From Candidatus Falkowbacteria bacterium RIFOXYA2_FULL_47_19 (GTDB taxonomy: Bacteria; Patescibacteriota; Patescibacteriia; Patescibacteriales; UBA12075): 64,000 nt of DNA. The position numbers were made by a program, and so were the translations under genes. The stretch covers positions 5,375-69,374 of the forward strand of contig MFGB01000023.1 in assembly GCA_001780275.1 (NCBI GenBank), in the 5' to 3' direction. The notes beneath the pieces were generated by a model that searched no databases, was not told the DNA's origin, and was given only the letters and a program-made list of their open reading frames with translations. Position 1 is the stretch's first letter, and the number at the start of each line of letters is the position of its first letter. Below are positions 5,368 through 57,012 of the stretch, piece after piece.

Positions 5368-6885
5368 CTACAAGTTTTTTAAATTATTAAGTCCGGCCAC
5401 GATTTCCATTTCTAACGCCTCGATCTTCCCCAAAATCACTTTCGGATCTTCGTAAATCGCTTCTTCATAATCCGTCACTTTATAACGATTAATACTCAAA
5501 TCAAAATCCGCTTCTTCGATTTCTTTTTTTTCAACGTAGAAGAACTTGCTATTCCGTTTATTCTCCTCTTGGTCTTTTCGCTTTTTCCATTTCGCCACGA
5601 TATCCGGCAAATCGCCACCACCATTGATCTTGGTTCGCTTATCATCCAGCGAAAAGCCATCTGACTGCATGTCATAAAACCAAACCTTCTCCGTCTCCCC
5701 GCCTTTCACAAAAATCAAAATTGCGGTGCTTACTCCGGCGTAGGGCTTGAACACTCCGCTGGGCATTGAGATAACGCCTTGCAGTTCGCAATCATTGAGT
5801 AACATTTTGCGCGCCTGCTTATGCGCGTTACTGGATCCAAAAAGCACGCCGTCCGGCACAATCATACCGGCGCGGCCGCCGATTTTGAGTGATTTGATAA
5901 TCCGATTAATAAACAGGAGTTCGGTCTTGCTGGTATTGAGCGAAAGCGATTCGTTGATATCTCCTTTATCAATACTCCCCTTGAACGGCGGATTCGCCAT
6001 GATGCAATCGTAAAAATTATCCTCATCGTATTTTTTTGATAACGTGTCTTTCTGTTCAATATTAGGACTGCTGATGCCGTGCATCATCAAGTTCATGAGA
6101 CCAATCCGCACCATACTCTCATCCATATCATAGCCGTAAAAAGTTTTTTCCTTAAGATGAGTCCACTGTTTTTCACTTGTCAGTTTATCGCCCAAATGCC
6201 CGCGCGTCAAACCGTTCTCATCTGTCTTCTGATTTTCCTTGCTGGTATAGGCGGTTATAATATGCTGGTAGGCGCCAAGTAAAAAGCCCCCGGTACCGCA
6301 GGCTGGATCACAAATCGTGTCACCCAATTTAGGGTCAACTAGTTCGCAAATCAATTGAATAATATGACGTGGTGTGCGAAACTGGCCAAGCTTGCCGGCA
6401 CTCGTAATTTCTGAAAGTAAATATTCGTAGAGATCACCTTGCGTATCCTGAAAGCCCTGTCCTTCCGATTCCTGCTTGGAAATCTCTTCAAAAATTTCAT
6501 CTATAATGTTAACCGCTTCTACTAAGAGCGAGGGTTTGGAAATTATAAAAACCGCGTTGCCCATGTGCTTAGCGAAAGGACTTTCCTCCTTGCCGATCGT
6601 TTTGAGGAAAGGGAAAACTTTTATTTGAACGTGTGTAAGCATTTCGCCGCCCTCCATGTGCCGGAAATGACTCCAACGCAACTTTTCATTACCTTTAAAA
6701 AGCGATCGATAAGCCTCACCAGTAAACTCCGCGTCTTGTTTCTTTTTCGTATCCATCTCATCCAATCTTTTCATAAACAGCAAATAAGAAATCTGCTCAA
6801 TGGCAGTCAGTGGATTGGAAATGCCACCGCTCCAAAATTTATCCCAGAGCCGACCGATGGCTGATTTCAGTGTACTATTTAGCAT
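5368..6885 (-). CDS. hsdM: Type I restriction-modification methyltransferase subunit
   Basis: HsdM_N-like N-terminus ('LWDKFWSGGISNPLTAIEQISYLLFMKRL'), motif I 'DPACGTGGFL' and motif IV 'ANPPF'. It overlaps hsdR by 11 nt. Confidence 0.9.
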   Translation of the reverse strand: MLNSTLKSAIGRLWDKFWSGGISNPLTAIEQISYLLFMKRLDEMDTKKKQDAEFTGEAYRSLFKGNEKLRWSHFRHMEGGEMLTHVQIKVFPFLKTIGKEESPFAKHMGNAVFIISKPSLLVEAVNIIDEIFEEISKQESEGQGFQDTQGDLYEYLLSEITSAGKLGQFRTPRHIIQLICELVDPKLGDTICDPACGTGGFLLGAYQHIITAYTSKENQKTDENGLTRGHLGDKLTSEKQWTHLKEKTFYGYDMDESMVRIGLMNLMMHGISSPNIEQKDTLSKKYDEDNFYDCIMANPPFKGSIDKGDINESLSLNTSKTELLFINRIIKSLKIGGRAGMIVPDGVLFGSSNAHKQARKMLLNDCELQGVISMPSGVFKPYAGVSTAILIFVKGGETEKVWFYDMQSDGFSLDDKRTKINGGGDLPDIVAKWKKRKDQEENKRNSKFFYVEKKEIEEADFDLSINRYKVTDYEEAIYEDPKVILGKIEALEMEIVAGLNNLKNL

Positions 6886-9685
6886 AATTTAAAATTTTAT
6901 CCGTGAATTGAATTATTTCCTTTTGCATATTTATCGGGAAGACACCGAGGAAGCCGCGGGCATGGATCTTGGTGAACGGCTCGCTAACCAAATCTTTTTT
7001 GGCCAATTCGCCATTGTTTATAATAAAATCACGCAACACAATCAAAAACTGGATTTGCTTGGGAGCCAGTGTGTTGTGCTCGGCGATAAACTCTGCGAAG
7101 GCCTCGGATACTTTTTCGGAAAAAGTGACCAAACCGCCCAAACCCATGATGTATTTTATCAGATCCAAAAATTTCACTTGCCGGGCATCATAGGCTTTTT
7201 GCAAATTTTCCTCGGTCGGATAAGGCTCGTATTCAGCCAAGGTATCGGCCAACTCCTCAACTTCCTCCTGGCTTACCGCTTCACCCTGTTTTAGTTTTTG
7301 CAGCACTTCGTTTTCAGTTTCTAGCTTTTTGATTAACGACTCGACTTTTTCACGGTATTTTTGAATAGTAAGCCGTTCATGTTCCGGGCCGAACTTGATA
7401 TATTCTTTTTGACTCGTTATATCGCGCAGATCAAGCGAATCCTGATCAGGCTTAATCCCCTCATCCCGGTATTTCATCAAAGGGGCAATTTTTTGAATCA
7501 ATACTTCCAGCGCATTATCATCGGCTTTTTTTAAAAAATTGCCATGTAAAATTTCTTCGATTAGCTTTTTCTCCTTGGCAACAACGTTGACTGATAATGG
7601 CAAGTCCGAAACCATCTCAACAAGGGCTTCCCCTAAAACCTGTGCTCGCTTGTCTTGATTATCAAGTTTGGCAATAGAGTAATGCAGTACTTTCAATTCA
7701 AAGCTCATAGCTTTGAAATCTTCGCCCGTCCGCGTGCGCATCAAGGGCGCAATCTCTTTTTCTAAAAATATTTTTTTATCTTCATTTAGTCTTTGCCAAA
7801 AAGTCTCGTCCACTTTTTCCAGCTTGCTTTTGGCGTCCAGTATCACCACATTATTAGACGGCAACTTAGCAATATCTACTTTTAACTTCTGGGTTACGGA
7901 ATTGACCAACTCGGCATTGTTGTGCGAATCCACAATGTTCAATTTCAATAATTTTGCTTCAAAAATCCGAACCGGCAGCGGCTTAGTGGCTTTGTCAATT
8001 TTGCCGGTGGGATTCATTTGGAAATAGTCAAAATTCTCCCAACAATCAATGATAAGAAATTTATCCTTGGTCTTGCACCAGGGCTTAATTTTATTGACTT
8101 CAAGGAGACGAGTGCCGCGGCCGATCATCTGCCAAAATTTTGTATAGGAAAAAACTGGTTTTGCAAAAACCAAATTAACCAACTCACGGACATCGATGCC
8201 CGTATCAAGCATATCAACGCTAATTGCAATTCGCGGGAAGTCTTTATTAATAAATTGATCCAAGAGGCCACCCTTACCATAAACTCTGGCATCGTCAGAA
8301 ACAATCACCTTGGCGATATTGCCTTTGTGCTCCGGATAAAGGTCGTCAAAAACTTCTTGGAGTCGCCGGGCGTGTTTCATGGTCATGGCAAAGAAAATTG
8401 TTTTTCCCGGCAAAGTACCGCTTTCGTCTTTAATGCACTCCTCCATAAACTCCTGAACAATCAATGCGTTAGTACCACGGTTAGTCACTTTTTTTTCAAT
8501 TTCACTGCCTTCGTAATTAATTTCAGCCGGCTCCTTGCCATCAGCCAATAGTTTTTGCTGCTCACCAATTGAAATGGTATCTTTTCTGATGCCTTCTTTT
8601 TGAAATTTAGTTCTGACTTTTAAAACTTCGAAGTTGGAAAGATAGGGCGGTTTATTATTCACGGCTTCGTCAAATGAATAGGCATAAGTCGGAATACCGT
8701 CTGCGCAATCAAATAGCCCAAAAGTATTGTGTTCAACCACGTCCTTGGGCGTAGCTGTCAGCCCCAATTGAATCGTATCAAAATAATCAAAAATATTTCT
8801 ATAAACATTATAAATCGAGCGGTGACTTTCGTCCGCCACAACCATGTCAAAAAAATGCGGACTCAAAGGACAATCATTATTCTCAATGATATTGAGCATC
8901 GTCTGATAGGTAGCACAATATATTCTTCTATCGGTAACAATATCGTGCTCTCCGATTTTCGGCCAAACTGGGGCATTGGGTAAAAACTCCTTAAAAGCAT
9001 CAAGAGCCTGGTTTCTAAGAGCAATTCTGTCTACCAAAAATAAAACTTTTTGAACTCGATTAGTGCGCATTAAAACGTCTATCATGGACACGCATGTCCT
9101 GGTTTTGCCGGTACCTGTTGCCATGACCAGCAATGACTTCCTTTTCCCTTTATCCAGATTTTCAAATACCGATCGGATCGCTTCGATTTGATAAGGGCGA
9201 CCAGAAATATCCCGATTAATCAATTCTTGTGATAGCGGTTTTTCATTATTCCGTAAAAATAACATCCTTTCCAGGTCCTTTTTACTAGGAAAGCCGTAAA
9301 CTTTCCGCGGCGGATATTTTTCAGTTTCCCAAAAATAAATATCGTGTCCATTGGTATAAAAAACAAAGGGCATATCTTTGCCGGAATTTTTTTGAATATT
9401 TTCCGCATACTGGCGCGCCTGCTCCTGACCGATTCTAGCGTCTTTCGAAGTTTTCTTTGCCTCAACCACAGCTAGTGGATAACCATTGTCGCCAAGCAAG
9501 GCATAATCAGCGAACTGATGACCTTGATATTCGTTAAGCGGCTGTTCTTTTGTCATGCCCTCCGAACCCACCCAAATATCTAATTCCGTCGTTACCTGAG
9601 TTACATTACCAACATCCCAACCACCCTTAGATAGTCGCTTATCTATTATATTTCGCCTTGTTAAGGCTTCGTTTATTTTTGCCAT
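6875..9685 (-). CDS. hsdR: Type I restriction enzyme R subunit (SF2 helicase/nuclease)
   Basis: N-terminal nuclease region, Walker A 'MATGTGKT', DEAH-type 'VADESHRS', helicase C motifs and a long helical C-terminal extension as in EcoEI-type HsdR. Confidence 0.9.
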   Translation of the reverse strand: MAKINEALTRRNIIDKRLSKGGWDVGNVTQVTTELDIWVGSEGMTKEQPLNEYQGHQFADYALLGDNGYPLAVVEAKKTSKDARIGQEQARQYAENIQKNSGKDMPFVFYTNGHDIYFWETEKYPPRKVYGFPSKKDLERMLFLRNNEKPLSQELINRDISGRPYQIEAIRSVFENLDKGKRKSLLVMATGTGKTRTCVSMIDVLMRTNRVQKVLFLVDRIALRNQALDAFKEFLPNAPVWPKIGEHDIVTDRRIYCATYQTMLNIIENNDCPLSPHFFDMVVADESHRSIYNVYRNIFDYFDTIQLGLTATPKDVVEHNTFGLFDCADGIPTYAYSFDEAVNNKPPYLSNFEVLKVRTKFQKEGIRKDTISIGEQQKLLADGKEPAEINYEGSEIEKKVTNRGTNALIVQEFMEECIKDESGTLPGKTIFFAMTMKHARRLQEVFDDLYPEHKGNIAKVIVSDDARVYGKGGLLDQFINKDFPRIAISVDMLDTGIDVRELVNLVFAKPVFSYTKFWQMIGRGTRLLEVNKIKPWCKTKDKFLIIDCWENFDYFQMNPTGKIDKATKPLPVRIFEAKLLKLNIVDSHNNAELVNSVTQKLKVDIAKLPSNNVVILDAKSKLEKVDETFWQRLNEDKKIFLEKEIAPLMRTRTGEDFKAMSFELKVLHYSIAKLDNQDKRAQVLGEALVEMVSDLPLSVNVVAKEKKLIEEILHGNFLKKADDNALEVLIQKIAPLMKYRDEGIKPDQDSLDLRDITSQKEYIKFGPEHERLTIQKYREKVESLIKKLETENEVLQKLKQGEAVSQEEVEELADTLAEYEPYPTEENLQKAYDARQVKFLDLIKYIMGLGGLVTFSEKVSEAFAEFIAEHNTLAPKQIQFLIVLRDFIINNGELAKKDLVSEPFTKIHARGFLGVFPINMQKEIIQFTDKILNYAK

Positions 9686-22018: not shown

Positions 22019-22230
22019 AAATTCCGTTTTTTATTTTAAAAATTTTAATATTTAAGAATTTACCACGCGCAATTTAATGGTGGATTAAATTGGACCATTT
22101 TTTTCTTAAGTATTTTTAATAAAATTTTAATTTATTATCCATAAAATGATCATTAATCAATGAACATATGATAAAATACGGTTCTTTGTAAACACGCGCG
22201 TTCACCGTCAGGAAAAAAGGAGAGAGTTTA

Positions 22231-23850
22231 ATGAAAAAAACGTCTTCGGTGTTTTTATTTTTTTTAACTTTAGCGTTCCTGCTGATCGGATGCTCGGGCG
22301 GGGGCGGAGCGGGAGGCGAGAGCGGGGCGGATGATCCCGGGAATCATGATAACGGAGGAATACCTTTACCCTTGGCTCCGACCGCCGCGATCTGGGCTTC
22401 AAGCGAGGCTATCAATGAAGGAGAAAGCGTACTGATCAGCTGGGAAACGGCGAACGGAACCGCGGAACTCTCTCCGCCTGTAGTTTATGACGCGCCGGCC
22501 GCGGGCAGTATCGACGTGATCCCCGCGGCTACGACCACTTATACGGTAACATGCCGGACTCCGGACGGACGGACCGAATCGGCCGGCGTAACCGTAAAAG
22601 TCAATCCGGCCCCGGTAAGGTCCTGTAGGGCGCCGGAAATCCCTTATTTCGAGCTCCTGCCCGAACGGATATTGACGCCCGGAAGCGGTCTCGTTACTCT
22701 TGCGTTTAAGACGGCGGAAAACGCGGACAGGATCGAGATCGACCTTGAAAACGGGGAAACGATCCCTCTGGTGAGGGTTTGCGAAGCGAATTGGAGCGTT
22801 TCCGTGGATTCGGAAAAACTGCTCTTAAATTACGTACCGGAAGAACCGCGGGTGGTCGTCGGCTACCTTGACGCGTATTCGGGGCCAGACCGTATCAGCC
22901 GGCGCAATCTTATCCTCCCGGTACGGACCGCCGCTATGCCGGATACGGATATGCGGATCATCGATCATAGCCGGCAAAGAAGCGGCCGCGTGCTGAATAT
23001 CCGCTATGACGGGGAAATATTTCTCGGCGGACAAAGCAGTACGTACGACCCGGTCTGGAGGGCGATAGAAAATACCGTTAAGAACGAACTAGGCGAGCGG
23101 GATATTTACGTTTTGATCGGCCAGGTCGAGGCGTTCGCGAATCGGACCGGAGGAGGAAAGGTCATTTCTTTTCCCAACCTCTTTTTCTTCGATCTCGCGA
23201 GTCGGGGAACGATACATGAGATCGGCCATTGCCTGGGATTGGCTTATTCCAGCCACCCTTCGCTGCGTGATCCGGCCGCCGGCGGCCATTGGGCTCCGGG
23301 AAACGCGGCTCTGGGTATTATGGGCTGGTCGCTTCCCGGGGGCGCGGGAGCGACATTCCCTTATCGCCTGGAAGCCGGGGATGATCCCGACACGACCGGA
23401 CTATGGGTAACGCCGATCGCCATGGAGTTTAACGATCTTGAACTCTATAAAATGGGCGCGCTTCCGAAGGAGCGGGTCGCGCCGATAACGCAATTTACCG
23501 ATCCGGCCGCGGCCATCTCCTGGTTTAATAATCCTTATCCGCTTCCGTCCTGCGGCGAAAGCTGCCAGCGGCTCGATGTTCCGTCCCGGCCGGTTTCGAT
23601 AGATGAAATAATCGCGGCGGACGGCGAAACGCCGCCGGCGGCCAAAACCGGGCTTACCCTGGGAACGGTCGTCCTGACCAGGGGAAGGCTTCTTAGTCCC
23701 GATGAAATGTCCTTTATCGAATATATGGCCAAACGCGGCGAAAGCGAAGATCCGTCGATCGGCGTCCACGAAGGGTTGTGGAGTTACGCGGGGAAACCGT
23801 TCCGGGCGGCCACCCGGGGACTTTTTACCATAAGCGCTTCAATCGATTAA
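22231..23850 (+). CDS. lipoprotein with zincin-type HExxH motif (putative metalloprotease)
   Basis: Lipobox 'LLIGCSGGGG', 'GTIHEIGHCLGL' (HExxH) and a GGAGAG RBS upstream. Confidence 0.6.
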   Translation: MKKTSSVFLFFLTLAFLLIGCSGGGGAGGESGADDPGNHDNGGIPLPLAPTAAIWASSEAINEGESVLISWETANGTAELSPPVVYDAPAAGSIDVIPAATTTYTVTCRTPDGRTESAGVTVKVNPAPVRSCRAPEIPYFELLPERILTPGSGLVTLAFKTAENADRIEIDLENGETIPLVRVCEANWSVSVDSEKLLLNYVPEEPRVVVGYLDAYSGPDRISRRNLILPVRTAAMPDTDMRIIDHSRQRSGRVLNIRYDGEIFLGGQSSTYDPVWRAIENTVKNELGERDIYVLIGQVEAFANRTGGGKVISFPNLFFFDLASRGTIHEIGHCLGLAYSSHPSLRDPAAGGHWAPGNAALGIMGWSLPGGAGATFPYRLEAGDDPDTTGLWVTPIAMEFNDLELYKMGALPKERVAPITQFTDPAAAISWFNNPYPLPSCGESCQRLDVPSRPVSIDEIIAADGETPPAAKTGLTLGTVVLTRGRLLSPDEMSFIEYMAKRGESEDPSIGVHEGLWSYAGKPFRAATRGLFTISASID

Positions 23851-23900
23851 GACCGTTCCTTTAAGGTTTAATTAAAATAGTACTTTATTTAAAAAAATAC

Positions 23901-23933
23901 AACCGGACGAAATTGTCCGGTTTTTTTATTTTT
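23901..23933 (+). terminator. intrinsic terminator (copy 1 of the AACCGGAC/GTCCGGTT module)
   Basis: AACCGGAC-gaaatt-GTCCGGTT followed by T7ATTTTT. It lies 50 nt after the 22231-23850 stop. Confidence 0.75.
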
Positions 23934-24537
23934 CCCGATATTTATCCATGGGTAAAAACACGGCTAACGCCGGAGTTTCTCTTTAATATTACCGCCGCGA
24001 TAATTAAAGTTTAATTAAGTTTTAATTTTATCTGTTTTATTATCCGTTCTAATCGGACTTTAACCTGCCAAATCTAAAATAGATTATGAATTAATGAACA
24101 TATAATTAATTCATCGATTTTTTGTAATTTGAAAAATAAATAAAAACTGATCTATGCGGACACAAGGGTCAGCGGAAAAACGGTTACGGGCTATTTATTT
24201 TTATGGAGTACGCGTTCCTCTGGAATGCGGGGAGGGGGTGGGAGCGGATTCGATGGTTACGGTATAATTAAGTACCCTTGTTCAATGAAGCGATTGCGGC
24301 TTTCCCGGCAAATGGCGTCCGAGGAAATTATAAGATCTATGCGTTTAAGCGCGTGAGACAATCGAACACGATCGATCTCCGCGCTTACGGCCGAAAATTC
24401 CGGGCCGGATTGCCGCTCGATCGAGCTTATTCCGGCTCCGGCAAAATCGTCCAGCGCGGAAAGGATTTCCCGCGCGCGGTCAAATTTGTCTTCCGGGTAT
24501 TTACGGAAAAAACAAGCGTTTCCTGGAGTCGCGCCAA

Positions 24538-24933
24538 GACCGCTCCGGAATCGCGCGCTCAACATCCTAAATATTCATCTACCGTCCGGGAATAAAGATC
24601 ATCGGCCGTACAAGAAAGATACGACCCGAGCCGTTTAACGGTAAGCCGGCCGATACGCGTACGCGCGTATTTAAAATAGACGGCGAAGAAGCGGCCCGCG
24701 CCCGAACTTCACTTTGCGGGCAATATCCCGCGGGTAAAGAGCGCGCGCGTCCGGTCCGAAAGCGGCCAATAAAACAGTGAGGGAAAAACCGGCGGACGGG
24801 ATTATTGCGCTTCGGAGGGTTTTGAGTCCGCGAACGGAAGCGAGCAGAGTGCTCATCGGCCTTCCCGACCGGCTTTAAACAGAACCGGCTTATTAGGGTC
24901 AGGCATTTGTAGTAAGCTCCTCCGGAAGCGGAC
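24538..24933 (+). ncRNA. candidate RNase P RNA-like structured RNA (tentative)
   Basis: ACAGAACCGGCTTAT (24879-24893) nearly equals the bacterial CR-V sequence ACAGAACCCGGCTTA. Upstream, in the E. coli order, lie GTCCGGG (24584-24590, about 295 nt before CR-V as in M1 RNA), a GCCCGC...GCGGGC hairpin (about 24694-24722), GGTAAAGAGCGCGC (24733-24746) and GGCCAATAAA (24764-24773). The termini pair (GACCGCUCCGGA 24538-24549 with UCCGGAAGCGGAC 24921-24933). The weaknesses are that the canonical GGAAAGUCC is not intact and P2/P3 are unresolved. Confidence 0.35.
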
Positions 24934-25429
24934 AATCGGCGATACCGAGCCTTTTTATGGACATCGTCGCGGCATTCTTATCGCCCGCAAGACGAAGGTA
25001 TTTCTGGGTATAACGTACCCCGGCGACGATCGCTATGGGCGTTTCCAGATCAAAGCCGCGCGGGTACTTTATCTGCGCCCCTGGTTCGCGGCCGCTCCCC
25101 GGATTAACGGAACCTATCCATTTCCGTCTGCTATCCGTCCTGGTGGGTTACGCCTGGACAAAATAAACGGCGAGCGGCGAAACTTACTGCCGCGAAGACG
25201 GTTTGCCGGGATAAATCCTCTTCAGGGGAGCTTCCGAAAGGCAGCGAACGGCCTTTACCGGCACACCGAAGACGCTGATCGACTCAAGAGCGGACATAAG
25301 AGACTGGTATAAAACTGGAGAAAAAAAACAGTTGATCCGTAAGCCGGTTTTGACTTGAGCGCATACGAAAAAACTTCAAAGCGGATGCGCGGGATTTATA
25401 AGCTAGCTTTGATCCATTAAATTCGTAGA

Positions 25430-26215
25430 TACGAATACGGTTAAACACGAAAAATAAAAAAGGCCGAAGCCTGGGCCGACCAAGGTTAGCGGTAAAAAAG
25501 AAAGAAAAGGAAAAAATCGGAAGTCCGCGGGCATCAAAAAATTACGCGGAAAAACCGCGCGATCGATCAGAAAACCCCGCGGCCGAATACGGCCAAACAC
25601 GGAAGACCAAAAAGACCGAAAATGGGCCGATCATGGCCAGCGGCGAAAACGAAAGAAAAGAAAAAAAACGGAAGTCCGCGGGCATCAAAAAATTACGCGG
25701 AAAAACCGCGCGATCGATCAGAAAACCCCGCGGCCGAATACGGCCAAACACGGAAGATAAAAAGAGCCGAAGCCTGGACCGACCAAGGTCAGCGGTAAAA
25801 AAGAAAGAAAAGAAAAAAAGAAAGAAAAGAAAAAAAGAAAGAAAAGAAAAAAAGATAGAAAAGAAAAAAAGAAAGAAAAGAAAAAAAGAAAGAAAAGAAA
25901 AAAAATAAAAAAATAAAAAATCGGAAGTCCGCGGGCATCAAAAAATTACGCGAAAAAACCACGCGATCGATCAGAAAACTCCGCGGCCGGATACGGCAAA
26001 CACGGAAGATGAAAAGAGCCGAAGCCTGGGCCGACCAAGGTCAGCGGTAAAAAAGAAAGAAAAGAAAAAAAAGAAAGAAAAAAATAAAAAATCGGAAGTC
26101 CGCGGGCATCAAAAAATTACGCGGAAAAACCGCGAGCGATCAGAAAGCCCCGCGGCCGGATACGGCCAAACACGAAAAATAAAAAAGGCCGAAGCCTGGG
26201 CTGATCAGAGTCAGT
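25430..26215. repeat. tandem array: 4 full units plus 1 partial unit of a hairpin-dense GC-rich core with A/G-rich linkers
   Basis: Units start at 25518, 25669, 25922 and 26093 with CGGAAGTCCGCGGGCATCAAAAAATTACGCGGAAAAACCGCGCGATCGATCAGAAAACCCCGCGGCCGAATACGGCCAAACACGG. A partial unit at 25430-25517 matches the 3' half. Periods are 151, 253 and 171 nt because of linker length. Confidence 0.9.
25803..25905. repeat. 17-nt all-purine microsatellite (GAAAGAAAAGAAAAAAA) x6
   Basis: Six head-to-tail copies, one with an A-to-T change at 25856, lie inside the linker of unit 2. The other linkers hold only 1-2 copies. Confidence 0.9.
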
Positions 26216-26540
26216 GAAAAACGCGGATCGAAGTAAATCACGAAATTACGGTAAACCCATAAAAAAGATGTTAACTAGGGGGGGGCGCGCCGCTAAACAG
26301 GCACGGAAACGCAATATAACCGTTATCGGTATAAATACGAGGATAGTAAAATTCTATTCTTCATAAGGTAGTTATCATTTACCGTTACGATCAAGATTAT
26401 ATTTCCCAGGAGGGCGAGCGGTTGCAAGCCGTCAGGCAACAAAAACCAGCAGGCTAACGCTGTCGGAACGATACGGGACGGCCGGATCTTCCGGCTTGAT
26501 CATAAAATAGTTCTTTATCCAATCAAACATAAAAAAATAT

Positions 26541-26570
26541 AACCGGACAAAAAGTCCGGTTTTTTATTTT
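26541..26570. terminator. bidirectional terminator (copy 2 of the AACCGGAC/GTCCGGTT module)
   Basis: AACCGGAC-aaaaa-GTCCGGTT with an A-run before and T5ATTTT after. The flanks match 23891-23936. It lies 3' of the M23 gene and at the end of the ORF-poor block. Confidence 0.7.
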
Positions 26571-26606
26571 CCGCCGTCAATAAAAACCCGACGGATCATT
26601 CGGATT

Positions 26607-27599
26607 TTATATGTCTTGGCCGATTTTATAATCGAAAAAAAACGAATCGGGCAGGTCGTCGACCTTTTTTTTCCAATCATCGCCGTAAAGCGCGGCGGCG
26701 GTTTCGGCTGAACGGATCCAGCGCAACTCGCCGCCGCGGGCGACCGCGTAGACCCGGGGATCGGTTTGCACCTTGACCATCCTCGTTCCCGGCCGGTAAG
26801 TGGCATTTCCGCCCAAAGGGATAGAGGCCATCTGGTCGACGCTTATTTCCGTCACATCGCCAAAACCGCCGTACCAGGAAAAATAGATCTTTTCGTTCGG
26901 AAAAACGTAACGCCGTCCGTCGGCTCCGCAATAATAAACGGCCGGCAGTCCGGATAATTTGACGAGCGAGCCGGAAACGCAGGCCGAAGCCGCTTTCGCG
27001 GAGAGTCCTTTGTCGGCGTTTATATCCGGAGAAAGAAGCCCGGCTTCCTTAATATCATAATCTATGACCGGATTAAGGGCGGCCGCGAGGCTCGGATAAG
27101 GATCGATCGGTGTTTTATCCGGCTGGCGGATCTCGAAGTGAAGATGCGGCCCGGCCGCTTCGGCGTTGCCGCTGTCCCCCATCCAGCCGATCAGATCGCC
27201 CCGGGATACTTCGGTCCCCTCCTTTATCCCGGGAGCGTAAGCGTGCCCGGTACCGCCCCGGCCGTCATCCGTACCTGGAGTGTCGTTATTGACGTGAAGA
27301 TAGTGGTAGGTAAAACCGTCCGCGTCCTTAAGCGTAATAGCGTAGCCCCAGGAAGATTCCGGATCGACCAGATCCGCGACCCGCCCGTCTACGGCGGCAT
27401 ATAGCGGCATCATCCGCTCGCCCATGATATCCTCGCCTTCGTGCGCGTGTCCCGAGCGGGGGTCGCCGAAGCTCTCCGTCAGTACGGCCCGGCGTTCGGT
27501 CGGAAAAAAGATCGGCCGGATTTCGGACGCCCGAACGGGAAAGATTATAATAAAATTAAAAATTGATAATAGAACAATGAACACTCCGGTCTTTTTCAT
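26607..27599 (-). CDS. secreted M23 (LytM-type) metallopeptidase
   Basis: Signal peptide, 'HAHEGEDI' (HxxxD), 'GDSGNAEAAGPHLHFEI' (HxH) and an additional C-terminal domain. Confidence 0.85.
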   Translation of the reverse strand: MKKTGVFIVLLSIFNFIIIFPVRASEIRPIFFPTERRAVLTESFGDPRSGHAHEGEDIMGERMMPLYAAVDGRVADLVDPESSWGYAITLKDADGFTYHYLHVNNDTPGTDDGRGGTGHAYAPGIKEGTEVSRGDLIGWMGDSGNAEAAGPHLHFEIRQPDKTPIDPYPSLAAALNPVIDYDIKEAGLLSPDINADKGLSAKAASACVSGSLVKLSGLPAVYYCGADGRRYVFPNEKIYFSWYGGFGDVTEISVDQMASIPLGGNATYRPGTRMVKVQTDPRVYAVARGGELRWIRSAETAAALYGDDWKKKVDDLPDSFFFDYKIGQDI

Positions 27600-27788: not shown

Positions 27789-28214
27789 ATGAAAAAAATC
27801 AACCCTAAGATCAAATTCTGCCTGGACATCGCGAAATTCCAGACCGAACTCTCCCGCCGCCTGGACAGCCGCCTGGGCGGCTTGGGATGGAACGAATTCA
27901 TCATCCTTTACCGCTTAAGCCGGGAGGACGGGCAAAAGATGCGCCGGATCGACCTGGCGGAAGCCGTGGGGCTGACCGCCTCCGGGATCACCCGCCTGCT
28001 TCTTCCGATGGAGAAGATCGGACTGGTCAAAAAGGAGGCGAACGCGCGGGACGCCCGCGTGAGCCTAGTAGCCTTGGCGCCGGGCGGCCGGACTAAGCTA
28101 AGCGAAGGCCTGGAGCGGATGGAAATATTCTGTGATGATCTCATTCCGTCCGGCAAAACGAAAAAGGCGGAAGAGCTATCGGACTTGCTGACCGATCTTA
28201 ACAAGAATATATAA
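27789..28214 (+). CDS. MarR-family transcriptional regulator
   Basis: 'WNEFIILYRLSREDGQKMRRIDLAEAVGLTASGITRLLLPMEKIGLVKKEANARDARV' is a winged-HTH of MarR type. Confidence 0.85.
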   Translation: MKKINPKIKFCLDIAKFQTELSRRLDSRLGGLGWNEFIILYRLSREDGQKMRRIDLAEAVGLTASGITRLLLPMEKIGLVKKEANARDARVSLVALAPGGRTKLSEGLERMEIFCDDLIPSGKTKKAEELSDLLTDLNKNI

Positions 28215-28226
28215 TTTTAAAACCAT

Positions 28227-28802
28227 ATGAAAAAGATCATTCTCGCCTCAACTTCGCCGCGCCGGAAAAAACTACTCGATCAGATCGGCCTGCGCTTTAA
28301 AGCCGTCGCTTCGGGTTACGAGGAAAATATGGACCTGAAGATGAAGCCCGCCGATCTGGCTAGATATCTTTCATCGGGCAAGGCCAGGGCGGTGGCTAAA
28401 AAATACCGGAACGCGATCATAATCGCGGCCGATACTTTCATTGCCTTAAAAAACGAGATATTGGGAAAGCCCGGGACCGATAAACAAGCCCGAATAACCT
28501 TAAAAAAAATCAGCGGCCGGACCCTGGAGGTGATCACCGGCCTGACGGTTATCGACACCGCCGCGGATAAAGAGGTTTCCCGGGCCGTGATCACGAAAGT
28601 GTCCGTGAAAAAACTCGGAAAGGACGAAATCGACGCTTACGTAAGAACCGGCGAACCCCTGGATAAAGCGGGCGCTTTCGGCATCCAGGAAAAAGGGGCC
28701 GTTTTCATAAAAAAGATCGATGGCGATTACAGCAACGTGGTCGGCCTGCCTTTGGGCGAGCTTTTCTCGATATTAAAAAAAATGAACCGCAAAATATATT
28801 GA
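28227..28802 (+). CDS. maf: Maf-family nucleoside triphosphate pyrophosphatase
   Basis: 'IILASTSPRRKKLLDQIGL', 'IIAADT' and 'DKAGAFGIQ' are Maf motifs. Confidence 0.9.
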   Translation: MKKIILASTSPRRKKLLDQIGLRFKAVASGYEENMDLKMKPADLARYLSSGKARAVAKKYRNAIIIAADTFIALKNEILGKPGTDKQARITLKKISGRTLEVITGLTVIDTAADKEVSRAVITKVSVKKLGKDEIDAYVRTGEPLDKAGAFGIQEKGAVFIKKIDGDYSNVVGLPLGELFSILKKMNRKIY

Positions 28803-28931
28803 TCCGGTTCACGCGAAATCATCCCTGACGGCTTCGTCCGGCCTTTTATCTTCGCGCCGGTTTCGGTTTCCTTATCGCATTTTAAAGATCATGTTATATA
28901 CTTTAAAGAGGCTAATTATTTAACGAAAAAT

Positions 28932-29810
28932 ATGGAAAATCCAAAGATCGGCTTTATCGGCCTCGGCACGATGGGGAGGGGCATGGCCGATAACCTTAAA
29001 AAAACCTATCCGTTATGCGTGTATAACCGCACCCGCTCCCGGGCCGAAGCGCTGGCGGCGGCGGAGATAGCGGGCAGTCCCAGGGAGGCGGCCGAGCGCT
29101 CGGAGATCATTTTTACCTGCGTTTCAGACGACCGCGCCCTGGAAGAGATCCTGTCCGGATCAGGCGGACTTTTCGAGGCGGATCTGACCGGCAAGATCCT
29201 GGTCGACTCCGGTACGACCTCCCTCGGTCTCACGGAAAAGATCGCGCGGGAAGCAAAGCGAAAGGACTTTGAATTTTTAGACGCACCGGTCACGGGAAGC
29301 AAATCAGGAGCCGAGGAGGGAAAGCTCATGTTCATGGTCGGCGGAAAAAAAGAGGTTTTCGACCGGATCGTCCCGGTCCTTAAAACCATGGGCGAACGCT
29401 TCGTTTACTGCGGGCGTACCCCGAACGGCCAAAGCGCCAAGCACGCCCTGAATCTCACGTTGTCGCTCGTACTCGAAAGCTATCTTGAGGGCCTCGCCTT
29501 CGGCCTCAAAGCCGGTGTGCCCCTTAAGGCGATGGAGGAGATCTTCGGCAACTCGGGCGCGAAAAACGGCATCGCGTCCTTCAAGATGCCTTATATAAAA
29601 AAACGCGACTTCGCGCCGCACTTTATGCTCAGGCTCATGAATAAGGATCTGAAGCTGGCGGCCGAAGACCGCGCGCGGTTCGGCGTTTACGCTCCTTTAG
29701 CCGATGAAATAATCAAAATATTCGATCAGGCCCTCTCCCGCGGCAACGAAGACGTTTCCACGATCGCCAAAACCCTGGAAAAAGCGAACGGCGTCTCGTT
29801 CTCGGAGTAA
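28932..29810 (+). CDS. NAD(P)-dependent beta-hydroxyacid dehydrogenase family oxidoreductase
   Basis: Rossmann motif 'IGFIGLGTMGRGMA', 'DAPVTGS' and a C-terminal 6PGDH-like helical domain. Confidence 0.85.
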   Translation: MENPKIGFIGLGTMGRGMADNLKKTYPLCVYNRTRSRAEALAAAEIAGSPREAAERSEIIFTCVSDDRALEEILSGSGGLFEADLTGKILVDSGTTSLGLTEKIAREAKRKDFEFLDAPVTGSKSGAEEGKLMFMVGGKKEVFDRIVPVLKTMGERFVYCGRTPNGQSAKHALNLTLSLVLESYLEGLAFGLKAGVPLKAMEEIFGNSGAKNGIASFKMPYIKKRDFAPHFMLRLMNKDLKLAAEDRARFGVYAPLADEIIKIFDQALSRGNEDVSTIAKTLEKANGVSFSE

Positions 29811-53193: not shown

Positions 53194-56100
53194 TTAATCC
53201 TTTCTTTTGGTAATATACCCATATACCCTATTTTCAAGAATTTTATATCGTATATCTATATTTACTTGATGTATCAAAGCAGAATGATTAATCTTGTATC
53301 TACAAATTGATAAAAATTTATTCCCCCACTCTATTTTATTTCTTTTATTCAATATTGGTATATATAATTTAGGAAATATTATCTCTAATTGATTATCGGT
53401 TACACTAAAATTCTTTAATAGATACAAAACAACATCAGAGGCAACATTTATAACTGAATTTATATTTGTTCCGTATTCTTCGGACCATATTAAGTTTAAA
53501 TTCAGTTTATCAATGTTCTTCGGATTTATAATTAGATTATTTTCAGTACCAACAAACATACATTTGATAATTTCTTCGGCACTTGTTGGTAGAAATCTTT
53601 CCCTATAAACAGTCAGCCAATGAAATGTTTCCAAATATTCATCCCAGGTAATCTTATTTGAATCAAGAAGAACACGAATTATAACCCATAAAGAAAAATA
53701 TATCGGTTGATTTTTGCCTGTTAGCCGGGAATTATAAGTTAAATATGAAAAATCTTCAGTCATCACAATCACATCGCCATCTTTTTGTTGCGCTTTTATG
53801 CAAGCATCTGATACTGATGGTAAAATTCTTTTTTCAATTTCGTTTTCATTTCTTTCACTATCAGCAACGCCAAAAATTTTTGCGTTTTTATTAATATAAT
53901 CATTAAATCCACACAATACTTCCTTAATTTTTTCTGAGCTTTCTTGGTCGTATTGCGAAAAATGAACATCACTTCCTCTCATACCAATTTGCATTGATCC
54001 TCTTTTAGGTACATTAGAAAACTTTTCTATCAGCCTCTTGTATTCCAACATAGCTGAAAATGGAACGTAATAATCTGGTAAATTAGATAAAACTTTCTTA
54101 TAGCTGCCGGACTCTAACAACATAAATAATGAAGTTCCATCTATAAAAACTTTTCTTCCCTGAATTGCCATAATAGCTTTTTCCTTTTGACTGTTTATGT
54201 CTTCCTGACTAAAATTAATATTAACAAATCCTTTTTTGTTAAATCTTATTTTTGAAAAAGCTTCTCCTATATTACCAACCAAAGATATATAAAAACTAAA
54301 AGGCAGTTTATTATTGACATACATCTTATAACATTCATTTTCTTTACCCATAAACTTCAACATCGATTCTTTTATTGATTCAGGTGTAGTACCAACTTCA
54401 ATCATTTTCATATAAGGACTTCCAGCTTTGCCCATTTTCTCCATAAGTTTAAAACCTTGAAATCCGATATAGTCTTCGATTATTCTTATATCTTCTACTT
54501 TTCTTTTTATTTTAACCATCCTACCATCGTCTCCGGCCCATTCAATTTTATCTCCAAGTTTTACATTTATTAAAGCCTTGTACCTTCTATCATTTTTGTT
54601 ATTAAGCTGAACTGCATTTAGAGGACTTCCTTCTCCCATAAAAAACCAATCTTCAATTTTTTCTAATTTTACAAAAACACCATCACTAATAATTTTAGGT
54701 CGTTCAAACTCAAAATCAAAAATATTTTGTATGATCATAAGCTGATAAGAAACAGCACCCAAACACTGATCATCAATCTTCTCAACACTTTTTATTGCAT
54801 TAACTGCAGCTTCAATTGACTCTTTTTTTAATTTCTTTGCTAAATATATTTCAGATTCCTTTATATATAGGCGGAAATCTTTTTTTACATCACTATATTG
54901 TTTGGATAAATTAAATGCATCGTTTCCATTACCGTCAGATAACAAAATATCCAAACAAATAAATAATATATAACTCTGGCCAGAGGGACTAATCTTATCT
55001 TTATTTTCTAAAACTTTTTTTCCATTTGATAAAGCGTCCGGAAATTCCCCTAAATTATATTGTGCGATAACCAAATTTGCTAAAAACGAAAATTCTTCTT
55101 GAGGATAAGCCCCCAACATCAATAATCTCTGTAGAGTATCTCTCTCAATGTTTGGATATATGCCAATGAACTTTGCTACTTCAAATGCTAACCGACAAAT
55201 TATTGGATCAGCCTTCTTGATGTTTATTTTTTTTACTACCTCAATTGCAGCATCATATTCTTTGTTGTCATACAGCAATCCGAGTTGCACTCTATGCAAC
55301 AAAGATTTCCAATCATTTCCTATCTTATTAATAAAACTATTAATTAAATCGATTTTAAATTCAAATTCCTTGATACTTATTATAATTTTGACTTTTTTAT
55401 TATCTTCAAATTTACTGATCTTCTCTTTTATTGTTTGCTTATTGCCCGATTCGATTGCTTCAAGCAATTCCTTTTCCTCGTAAGCTTTGCCAATTTTGCA
55501 TAGTTTTTTCAGCCTCGAATAATCATTAAAATAAGTAATCCCATTTACCGCCAAAATAAATAATAAATTCTTAGATGGTTTTTTTCTGGAATTTTCTATA
55601 TATACCAATATATTTTCAATAACATCTTTTGACAGCAAAGATTGCGCGCCATCCAAAATCTCGCATAATACATTGTCGTTATATGAATCAAAATATGACC
55701 CCAAAATGTAAGATAGTAATGTTTTTAAATTTTGACGAATTTTATTCTCATCAGCATTCGGATGTTGTAAAAAGAAAAAATTCATTTTCAAACGTTCAAT
55801 TTCTAACTTTCTTTTAACTACATCATCTTTGACTGTATAATTCTCTAAACTCTCAATCTCTTTCTGTAATATAATTGCCTCAGAAAAAAAATCAAAATCA
55901 CTATTTTCATTTTTCAATGCTAATAAGTCAAAAATTTTAAATCCAACTTTTTGAATCTTGTAATGTATATAACTAGAGTCTGTTTCTATGGCCTTCTCAA
56001 GATAGCTATCCCTTTTATCTTTATCCTGTTGTAATGAAATTGAATGTATATAATAACAATGTGCTCTCTCCCAGGTACCATCTTCCCCCCAAATTTCATC

Positions 56101-57012
56101 ATCTGGAATTTCTATTTTCTTTTCGGTTTTTAATCTTTTTACATACTTTAAATTGTAAATTACAGGGTGATCTGGAGTTATCTCTTTGGCCTTTTTGTAA
56201 TAGCGACCAAATGAATCATAATTATCTACTTGCAAATAAATATCAGCTAAATATAAATATGGCCTAATTTCTTTTGAAAATTCTTTAATAATTTCTTTAT
56301 TTTTAATTATTGCTTCTTCAATTTTTTCAGCCTCTTGATAGGCCTTTGCCTCAAGAGTTAAAAAGTCTATATATACATCTTGTTCATTATTGATAGAAAT
56401 AAAGTGCTTTAATTGATTCAGAATATCTATCACTCTGTTCGGTTGACCGTTCCTTGCATATTTTCTGCAACGCTTTATTATCTTTTTTAAGCCTTTTGAA
56501 ATTATCTTTTGATCGCTTTCATTTAAATTCTTTTTATTTTTAATATCATCTAAAACTAATAATATTTCTTCGGTATTTTTTTTAGTTAGTTTTATATCCT
56601 CCAAATCATTATTTTGAAGCGAATTTTTGTCAATTTGATATTTTATTAAAAATAAAAATATTAATATTAATACGAAGTCAGTAAATACAACTAATTGGCT
56701 ACCTCCAAAAAATAAAACTAATATATCAATTAAAATTTCAATAAAAAAATTAAGACCGTATTCAAGTTTAATACGATATACAATTTCCAATATTTGATCA
56801 GATAAACCAAAAACACCTAACTGAGACAAAAAATGCACAATTAGAAAAAACAGAATTGTAGTCAAGGATTTTTGCCTTGAATAGACAATTTTTATAATTT
56901 CTAATATTTGATACAGAAATTCTTTCATATAATGTCTCCATTTTAAGCATGATGAAATACTTAATGTAACCCCTAAGTTGATGCTAATATTTGAGATTTT
57001 ATAGTAAGTCAA
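53194..57012 (-). CDS. giant protein: N-terminal TM region + TPR-like helical repeats + GreA/B C-terminal-like domain + PIN-like domain
   Basis: TM helices lie in the first ~130 aa, followed by long helical-repeat regions. 'GVFVKLEKIEDWFF...YKALINVKLGDKIEWAGDDGRMVKIKRKVEDIRII' parallels the GreA C-domain ('FGATVTV...[30 protein letters not shown]'). After that come the PIN-like acidic strands 'KVFIDGTSLFML', 'PSVSDACI' and 'VIVMTEDFSYL'. Confidence 0.55.
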   Translation of the reverse strand: MTYYKISNISINLGVTLSISSCLKWRHYMKEFLYQILEIIKIVYSRQKSLTTILFFLIVHFLSQLGVFGLSDQILEIVYRIKLEYGLNFFIEILIDILVLFFGGSQLVVFTDFVLILIFLFLIKYQIDKNSLQNNDLEDIKLTKKNTEEILLVLDDIKNKKNLNESDQKIISKGLKKIIKRCRKYARNGQPNRVIDILNQLKHFISINNEQDVYIDFLTLEAKAYQEAEKIEEAIIKNKEIIKEFSKEIRPYLYLADIYLQVDNYDSFGRYYKKAKEITPDHPVIYNLKYVKRLKTEKKIEIPDDEIWGEDGTWERAHCYYIHSISLQQDKDKRDSYLEKAIETDSSYIHYKIQKVGFKIFDLLALKNENSDFDFFSEAIILQKEIESLENYTVKDDVVKRKLEIERLKMNFFFLQHPNADENKIRQNLKTLLSYILGSYFDSYNDNVLCEILDGAQSLLSKDVIENILVYIENSRKKPSKNLLFILAVNGITYFNDYSRLKKLCKIGKAYEEKELLEAIESGNKQTIKEKISKFEDNKKVKIIISIKEFEFKIDLINSFINKIGNDWKSLLHRVQLGLLYDNKEYDAAIEVVKKINIKKADPIICRLAFEVAKFIGIYPNIERDTLQRLLMLGAYPQEEFSFLANLVIAQYNLGEFPDALSNGKKVLENKDKISPSGQSYILFICLDILLSDGNGNDAFNLSKQYSDVKKDFRLYIKESEIYLAKKLKKESIEAAVNAIKSVEKIDDQCLGAVSYQLMIIQNIFDFEFERPKIISDGVFVKLEKIEDWFFMGEGSPLNAVQLNNKNDRRYKALINVKLGDKIEWAGDDGRMVKIKRKVEDIRIIEDYIGFQGFKLMEKMGKAGSPYMKMIEVGTTPESIKESMLKFMGKENECYKMYVNNKLPFSFYISLVGNIGEAFSKIRFNKKGFVNINFSQEDINSQKEKAIMAIQGRKVFIDGTSLFMLLESGSYKKVLSNLPDYYVPFSAMLEYKRLIEKFSNVPKRGSMQIGMRGSDVHFSQYDQESSEKIKEVLCGFNDYINKNAKIFGVADSERNENEIEKRILPSVSDACIKAQQKDGDVIVMTEDFSYLTYNSRLTGKNQPIYFSLWVIIRVLLDSNKITWDEYLETFHWLTVYRERFLPTSAEEIIKCMFVGTENNLIINPKNIDKLNLNLIWSEEYGTNINSVINVASDVVLYLLKNFSVTDNQLEIIFPKLYIPILNKRNKIEWGNKFLSICRYKINHSALIHQVNIDIRYKILENRVYGYITKRKD

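Follow-up and report, generated by a model that had tools for sequence, protein, structure and literature searches.

What is the origin of a block of ~2640 nucleotides (nt) that has no credible open reading frame (ORF), is rich in G+C (GC) and begins and ends with the same kind of terminator? The block in question lies between two convergent genes, one for a 539-amino-acid (aa) protein on the plus strand and one for an M23 peptidase on the minus strand (26607-27599), in a 64-kb stretch of DNA from Candidatus Falkowbacteria, a member of the Candidate Phyla Radiation (CPR/Patescibacteria) from a Rifle-aquifer metagenome; this whole stretch is called the window below. The original prediction for this locus had left two explanations standing, an independent plus-strand non-coding transcription unit or a segment whose insertion duplicated the terminator. 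The analysis presented here indicates that the block is very likely a decayed tandem duplicate (pseudogene) of the promoter-gene-terminator unit that lies directly upstream, together with a tandem array.

Remnants of the Upstream Unit Lie Within the Block in Their Original Order

A low-stringency blastn comparison of the block with the window gave the first indication: its best match linked 24075-24127 to 22142-22191 (77% over 53 nt), upstream of the 539-aa gene. The same comparison with a sister genome, Candidatus Falkowbacteria GCA_043801965.1 (referred to as L012), gave the orthologous promoter as the best match (84% over 38 nt), and alignments extend the likeness through the promoter, the 5' untranslated region (5' UTR) and the first ~100 nt of the coding sequence. 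We therefore speak of the upstream unit as the parent. A DNA profile made from the parent unit (window 22040-23940) and its L012 orthologue was searched with nhmmer against the 64-kb window, with the parent masked. It returned four matches, all of them within the block, on the plus strand, in the order of the parent and directly downstream of it. The features of the locus are as follows, with nhmmer scores where a match was obtained.

22040-23936, plus strand: parent transcription unit, comprising a promoter region (~22050-22200), the 539-aa gene (22231-23850) and a predicted bidirectional terminator.
23873-23936, unstranded: left terminator module, hairpin at 23901-23922; predicted terminator of the 539-aa gene.
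23989-24256, plus strand: relic of the promoter, the 5' UTR and the start of the coding sequence (~35 codons, for the signal peptide and a Gly-rich linker); model 20-296, 28.3 bits, E 7.8e-10.
24257-24651, unstranded: stretch without detectable parent homology; Smith-Waterman alignment against the parent gap, z 1.7, not significant.
24652-24872, plus strand: relic of codons ~238-318; model 904-1143, 17.6 bits, E 1.3e-6.
25084-25199, plus strand: relic of codons ~426-473; model 1467-1610, 5.0 bits, E 0.0086 in the window and 3.7e-4 in the block alone.
25432-26240, unstranded: non-coding tandem array; Tandem Repeats Finder (TRF) period 151, 86% matches, score 609, and unit alignment.
26241-26478, unstranded: unique 240 nt between the array and the right terminator region, without parent similarity (z 0.4).
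26479-26575, unstranded: right terminator module, duplicated copy, hairpin at 26541-26561; model 1812-1902, 23.7 bits, E 1.9e-8.

Controls set the three strong scores clearly apart from background, and the 5.0 bits by a narrow margin. The best nhmmer score elsewhere in the 64-kb window was 4.6 bits and that over 89 kb of related CPR loci was 0.3 bits, while the reversed block, used as a decoy, gave no match at E<=20. For the relic of codons ~238-318, the local alignment with the parent has a z score of 7.1 and none of 300 shuffles reached its score.

The relics carry disabling lesions. In the first of them, a -10-like TATAAT is found at 24101-24106 (the 5' region of the parent has TATGAT at the -10-like position), the ribosome-binding site has been deleted, and the position of the start codon reads GCG (24172-24174) instead of ATG. 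The relic at 24652-24872 is 60% identical to the parent and is interrupted by many frameshifting insertions or deletions (indels) of 1-3 nt, and that at 25084-25199 is 66% identical and has a 25-nt deletion; overall, alignment of the coding islands requires many 1-3-nt indels and some deletions of 13-25 nt. Because the frameshifts are so dense, homology to the parent is seen only at the level of the DNA profile, and tblastn and tblastx searches of the block against the 539-aa protein returned noise only. The original prediction had named a decayed gene spread across the block as the finding that would speak against it, and the four collinear islands amount to such a gene in part. They also reach into 24934-25430, which had been described as completely unexplained and of which 25084-25199 is now accounted for as a parent-homology island.

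The parent protein itself has a lipobox signal peptide (LLIGC) and a zincin-like HExxH motif (HEIGH). A Pfam search of the 539-aa protein placed no family above threshold, and its match to Peptidase_M10 is weak and confined to the HExxH (E 0.16).

An imperfect AT-rich palindrome is common to the promoter regions of the 539-aa gene and the relic, with 27-nt arms that are 70% complementary in the relic. The palindrome-bearing promoter stretches are 24069-24131 (relic) and 22142-22191 (parent) in the window and 12781-12817 in L012. The palindrome could be an operator; a gene for a MarR-family regulator lies close by, at 27789-28214.

Composition and Coding Potential of the Block

The block opens with an AT-rich stretch (23940-24140), which is followed by a GC-rich stretch (24150-25430) in which all frames are broken. 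We could corroborate the earlier description of the block as lacking a credible ORF: stop codons are present in all six frames, and the longest start-to-stop ORFs between the modules measure 118, 105 and 102 aa, without a family match or homologue. Its GC-rich character, unlike that of local spacers, was likewise borne out, with a GC content of 0.50-0.59 over 24200-25300 compared with 0.24-0.40 in ordinary spacers and 0.52-0.65 in most of the flanking coding DNA. Both properties would be expected of a decayed promoter-gene-terminator duplicate, since such a copy lacks any ORF and would retain a coding-like GC content from its past as a gene. The stretch without detectable parent homology at 24257-24651 contains an orphan 102-aa ORF (24257-24565, minus strand) and has its lowest GC at one codon phase, like the genes of the window. 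In the unique 240 nt at 26241-26478 there is neither an Rfam match nor an ORF with homologues.

At least four separate assemblies (ENA ANAN16-1 scaffold_72, JGI 3300025152, ENA k141_107845 and NCBI GCA_036846865.1) contain the block at 99.9-100% identity, and it is therefore not an assembly chimera or artefact. The carriers belong to one strain-level population. Several short contigs of the same population (L010, L011, L005, L007 and L008) stop within or beside the array or relic, at ~24630, 25472, 26058 and 26172; the repeats fragment short-read assemblies of the region.

Both Ends Carry Copies of One Terminator

The pattern AACCGGAC-N3-7-GTCCGGTT occurs exactly twice in the 64-kb window, at 23901-23922 and 26541-26561, whereas none is expected from shuffled sequences. 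Both hairpins are preceded by an A-run and followed by a T-run, and they obtain a terminator-like score on both strands in a terminator scan, so that, with a GC-rich hairpin and a T-run on either strand, both modules are predicted to be bidirectional intrinsic terminators. The 41-42-nt modules are 76% identical without gaps and ~88% identical with two 1-nt gaps, as counted from the sequence. Their likeness runs ~30 nt further upstream, past the A-run, and the direct repeat is therefore ~65-70 nt long. The claim that the same terminator stands at both ends thus holds, these being the only two such sites in 64 kb, and the repeat length of 43 nt given for it has to be revised upward. The right module has a 10-nt insertion upstream of the hairpin and is predicted now to terminate the convergent M23 peptidase gene. 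The like terminators at the two ends of the block are readily explained if the whole transcription unit was duplicated.

The 3' Part of the Block Holds a Tandem Array

The array at 25432-26240, to which the original prediction made no reference, consists of 4.3 head-to-tail units, i.e., four full units of 152, 151, 252 and 170 nt and a partial fifth of ~50 nt. Each unit is built from a segment A (GCCGAAGCCTGGGCCGACCAAGGTCAGCGG, with a small hairpin), a variable polypurine linker and a segment B with a nested CCGCGG/CGCGG hairpin. In unit 3, the linker holds a 17-nt polypurine repeat, AAAAAAGAAAGAAAAGA, in 7.3 copies (94% matches, 25797-25920). As neither the units of 152, 151 and 170 nt nor the 17-nt repeat are multiples of three, the reading frame would shift with every unit, and a coding repeat is not compatible with this anatomy.

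Length differences were found between assemblies. Assembly L006 lacks exactly one 171-nt unit, and the ANAN16-1 scaffold (L001) is ~30 nt shorter between two 100%-identical segments that join in unit 3; in both instances collapse in short-read assembly is possible, and the shorter ANAN16-1 scaffold may reflect a shorter polypurine tract. Together with the short contigs that end at the array, these length differences suggest a minisatellite. The array core GCGGGCATCAAAAAATTACGCG had no match in the genome, metagenome and viral contig collections, which is weak evidence as these collections evidently hold no contigs of this organism. A 19-nt resemblance of the array unit to 24162-24180 is at chance level.

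A Sister Genome Lacks the Block

In L012, the M23 peptidase is 91% and the 539-aa protein 86% identical to those of the window, and the gene order is the same on both sides. Only 114 nt separate the convergent stop codons there, with a single terminator of the same type and no block. The comparison with a related genome, which the original prediction had proposed as a check, thus defines the block as an indel flanked by a duplicated terminator. The notion of an insertion with terminator duplication is correct insofar as the terminator is duplicated and the block is absent from the sister; what was added is a copy of the whole upstream unit, not other DNA.

We then compared divergences to place the duplication in time. 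Across those islands that can be aligned, identity of the block is 62% with the parent and 61% with the L012 orthologue, which places it at about the same distance from both, whereas a comparison of the two orthologues gives 85% (80.5% for third codon positions alone). Where the orthologues differ, the block shares the base of the window at 47 sites and that of L012 at 34. A divergence between copy and parent that so far exceeds the divergence between the orthologues makes the duplication seem too old to have arisen after the split; most probably it predates the separation of the two species, which makes a loss in L012 likelier than a gain in the present lineage. In the L012 terminator, the part upstream of the hairpin is like the left copy and the part that begins with the loop is like the right copy, a chimeric structure that offers a slight hint of deletion between the two terminator copies. 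Import of an already diverged paralogue is conceivable. Relatives of the 539-aa protein were found only in the L012 genome among genome contigs and nowhere in metagenome contigs, and the distant M23 homologues (63-67% identical) show no synteny and have no 539-like gene nearby, so that they provide no outgroup.

A second indel between the two species lies within 10 kb. At 7101-8453, L012 carries a 450-aa gene without a Pfam match between genes for an NAD-binding dehydrogenase and maf; the same two genes are adjacent in the window, with a gap of 130 nt (28802-28932). The 450-aa protein has no similarity to the block.

The following course of events would account for these observations. Tandem duplication of the whole upstream unit would have produced the order promoter-gene-terminator-promoter'-gene'-terminator'. 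The second copy would then have been disabled by deletion of its ribosome-binding site, loss of its ATG, frameshifts and deletions amounting to several hundred bases, and would have drifted to ~62% identity, leaving four collinear islands recognizable. A 3' segment of ~150 nt may have been amplified into the tandem array by unequal recombination or slippage, with later expansion of the 17-nt polypurine repeat within one unit. The sister species would have lost its copy by recombination between the two terminator repeats, which leaves one terminator behind.

Alternative Explanations for the Block

It is tempting to speculate that the duplicated unit was taken over as a plus-strand non-coding RNA (ncRNA) gene, with a ~2.4-kb transcript from the relic promoter to the right terminator; the A-rich hairpin modules repeated along this transcript would serve as a scaffold or would sequester a protein or small RNA in the manner of a sponge. 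We consider this unlikely, although several features agree with it: the TATAAT of the relic is better than the TATGAT of the parent, the terminator at 26541-26561 is intact, the flanking terminators insulate the block, windows over the array have modestly negative folding z scores (-2 to -4), and 2.6 kb of non-coding DNA has been kept in a streamlined CPR genome. The independent plus-strand unit proposed earlier was therefore right about the presence of a promoter-like element and a terminator, but both are inherited copies of the signals of the neighbour, and no sign of a structured RNA was detected. A scan of the whole window against Rfam gave no match at gathering thresholds, and over the block even E<=10 yielded only generic terminator look-alikes, far below gathering scores. 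Folding z is near 0 across most of the unique part of the block, single array units fold no better than shuffles (z -0.7 to -1.6), and in unit 3 two changes break the inner hairpin without compensating each other. A CsrB/RsmZ-type sponge was considered and rejected, as GGA is not enriched in the array (15 observed compared with 23.2 +/- 3.8 in shuffles) and the window contains no CsrA-like ORF. Furthermore, the M23 gene needs the right terminator in any case, and the sister species does without the block. In the part without detectable parent homology, a GC-rich hairpin cluster at 24300-24499, which overlaps the orphan 102-aa ORF, is much more stable than its shuffles (-86 kcal/mol with z -4.2 for the minus strand; z -3.0 for the plus strand). 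This cluster might belong to such a recruited RNA or represent a separate antisense RNA. The more specific proposal that the relic promoter still fires, and that the ~2.4-kb RNA with its A-rich linkers and CCGCGG hairpins now has a regulatory or scaffolding role peculiar to this lineage, strikes us as quite improbable.

A second alternative takes the block for foreign or mobile DNA, such as a cis-mobilizable element or cassette, that integrated site-specifically at the terminator and left the two copies as attL and attR. Direct repeats of ~65-70 nt with a palindrome do flank the block, and at the corresponding empty site L012 has one terminator copy, which mixes left-copy features upstream with right-copy features from the loop onward; however, a chimeric terminator is equally expected from a deletion between two copies, and the interior holds collinear relics of the promoter and coding sequence of the adjacent gene. 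No integrase, transposase or other recombinase family was found in any open segment of the block, and searches with Pfam, PHROGs and NCBIfam of the frame -1 read-through, the ORFs and ten stop-to-stop open segments detected no protein family. The block had no match in phage and plasmid DNA and no similarity to viral contigs, in which the terminator pattern has nine generic matches whose surroundings do not resemble it, and neither the window nor related loci contain another copy. All this makes a mobile element very improbable. That the block conceals a live protein-coding gene, obscured by sequencing errors, programmed frameshifting or an alternative genetic code, is more improbable still. 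Its coding-like GC content, a startless open frame of 179 codons (24773-25309) and a weak codon-phase GC signal at 24140-24500 are compatible with such a gene, but four separate assemblies agree on the sequence, the neighbouring genes read normally in table 11, every frame has stops, and the relic alignment needs many indels in addition to the lost ribosome-binding site and ATG. No open segment has a homologue either: in protein searches that covered 5.8 billion and 1.84 billion proteins, the 102-aa ORF (k-mer search) matched only itself, the 105-aa stop-to-stop segment at 24260-24574 (exhaustive HMMER search) matched only itself besides a weak 26-residue match to P0122, and the 179-codon frame had no match.

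Several observations weigh against the interpretation of the block as a decayed tandem duplicate. Only ~700 of the ~2640 nt align to the parent, in four islands, one of which (25084-25199) is weak when taken alone at 5.0 bits. The three stretches between the islands gave no significant local alignment in Smith-Waterman comparisons with shuffles and may thus have a different origin; we assigned them to the relic by position and not by direct evidence. The parent does not account for the source of the array unit or of 26241-26478, and nhmmer, queried with the array unit, found nothing significant in the parent unit, the window or L012. The collections searched contained one related genome, and the choice between loss and gain consequently turns on divergence arithmetic alone. 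Finally, the perfect TATAAT in the relic promoter and the unusual folding at 24300-24499 suggest that some residual function is possible, although on the decayed-duplicate interpretation the block would probably have none at present.

Comparison with Known Systems

Like other pseudogenes that arose by tandem duplication, the block follows its parent immediately and on the same strand, with promoter and terminator copied along, and it has lost its translation start, accumulated frameshifts, stops and net deletions, and retained patchy nucleotide homology of ~60%. It differs in being unusually old and eroded for one that is still present, with about one-quarter alignable, in residing in a small CPR genome where quick deletion would be expected, and in having gained an array of 0.8 kb. 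The array shares with bacterial intergenic minisatellites, or variable-number tandem repeats, its head-to-tail arrangement, 86-91% identity between units, a partial last unit, lengths that are mostly not multiples of three, apparent differences between assemblies in the number of units and perhaps in the length of the inner microsatellite, and the breaking of short-read contigs. In contrast to these, its units are long (151-252 nt) and composite, with two hairpin segments and an expandable polypurine linker, and neither the window nor the public collections that were scanned yielded another copy of the unit. The terminators correspond to the bidirectional type found between convergent genes, with an 8-9-bp GC-rich hairpin flanked by an A-run and a T-run. 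L012 uses one such terminator for both genes, whereas here it is duplicated and each gene has its own copy, 2.6 kb apart.

With the large structured ncRNAs in Rfam (OLE, GOLLD, ROOL and HEARO), the block has in common only its size, its lack of ORFs and its GC-rich composition in an AT-rich intergenic background. Unlike them, it matches no covariance model, is not unusually stable in folding over most of its length and lacks homologues, and it clearly descends from a protein-coding gene. Set beside these systems, the block is in all likelihood an ordinary pseudogene, neither a new RNA gene nor a mobile element.

For annotation, the locus illustrates how a GC-rich, ORF-free block between like terminators mimics a large ncRNA or a mobile insert, and how a nucleotide profile of the neighbouring gene, at a cost of seconds, exposes a decayed tandem paralogue. 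The block would also record, within streamlined CPR genomes, a duplication, a long-lived relic of 2.6 kb, the growth of a minisatellite and, in the sister, a probable deletion between terminator repeats. Terminator-sized direct repeats that arise from duplication of a unit would offer a simple route to the clean loss of the extra copy. If the recruited RNA considered above were nevertheless real, it would be a case of an ncRNA arising from a pseudogene, caught in the act.

Other Features of the Window

Elsewhere in the window, two long minus-strand ORFs, 53194-57012 (1272 aa) and 6875-9685 (936 aa), have a GC content much lower than that of the other genes. By codon position, it amounts to 0.37/0.24/0.23 for the former and 0.50/0.30/0.43 for the latter, compared with ~0.6/0.45/0.65, which suggests that both ORFs are compositionally foreign.

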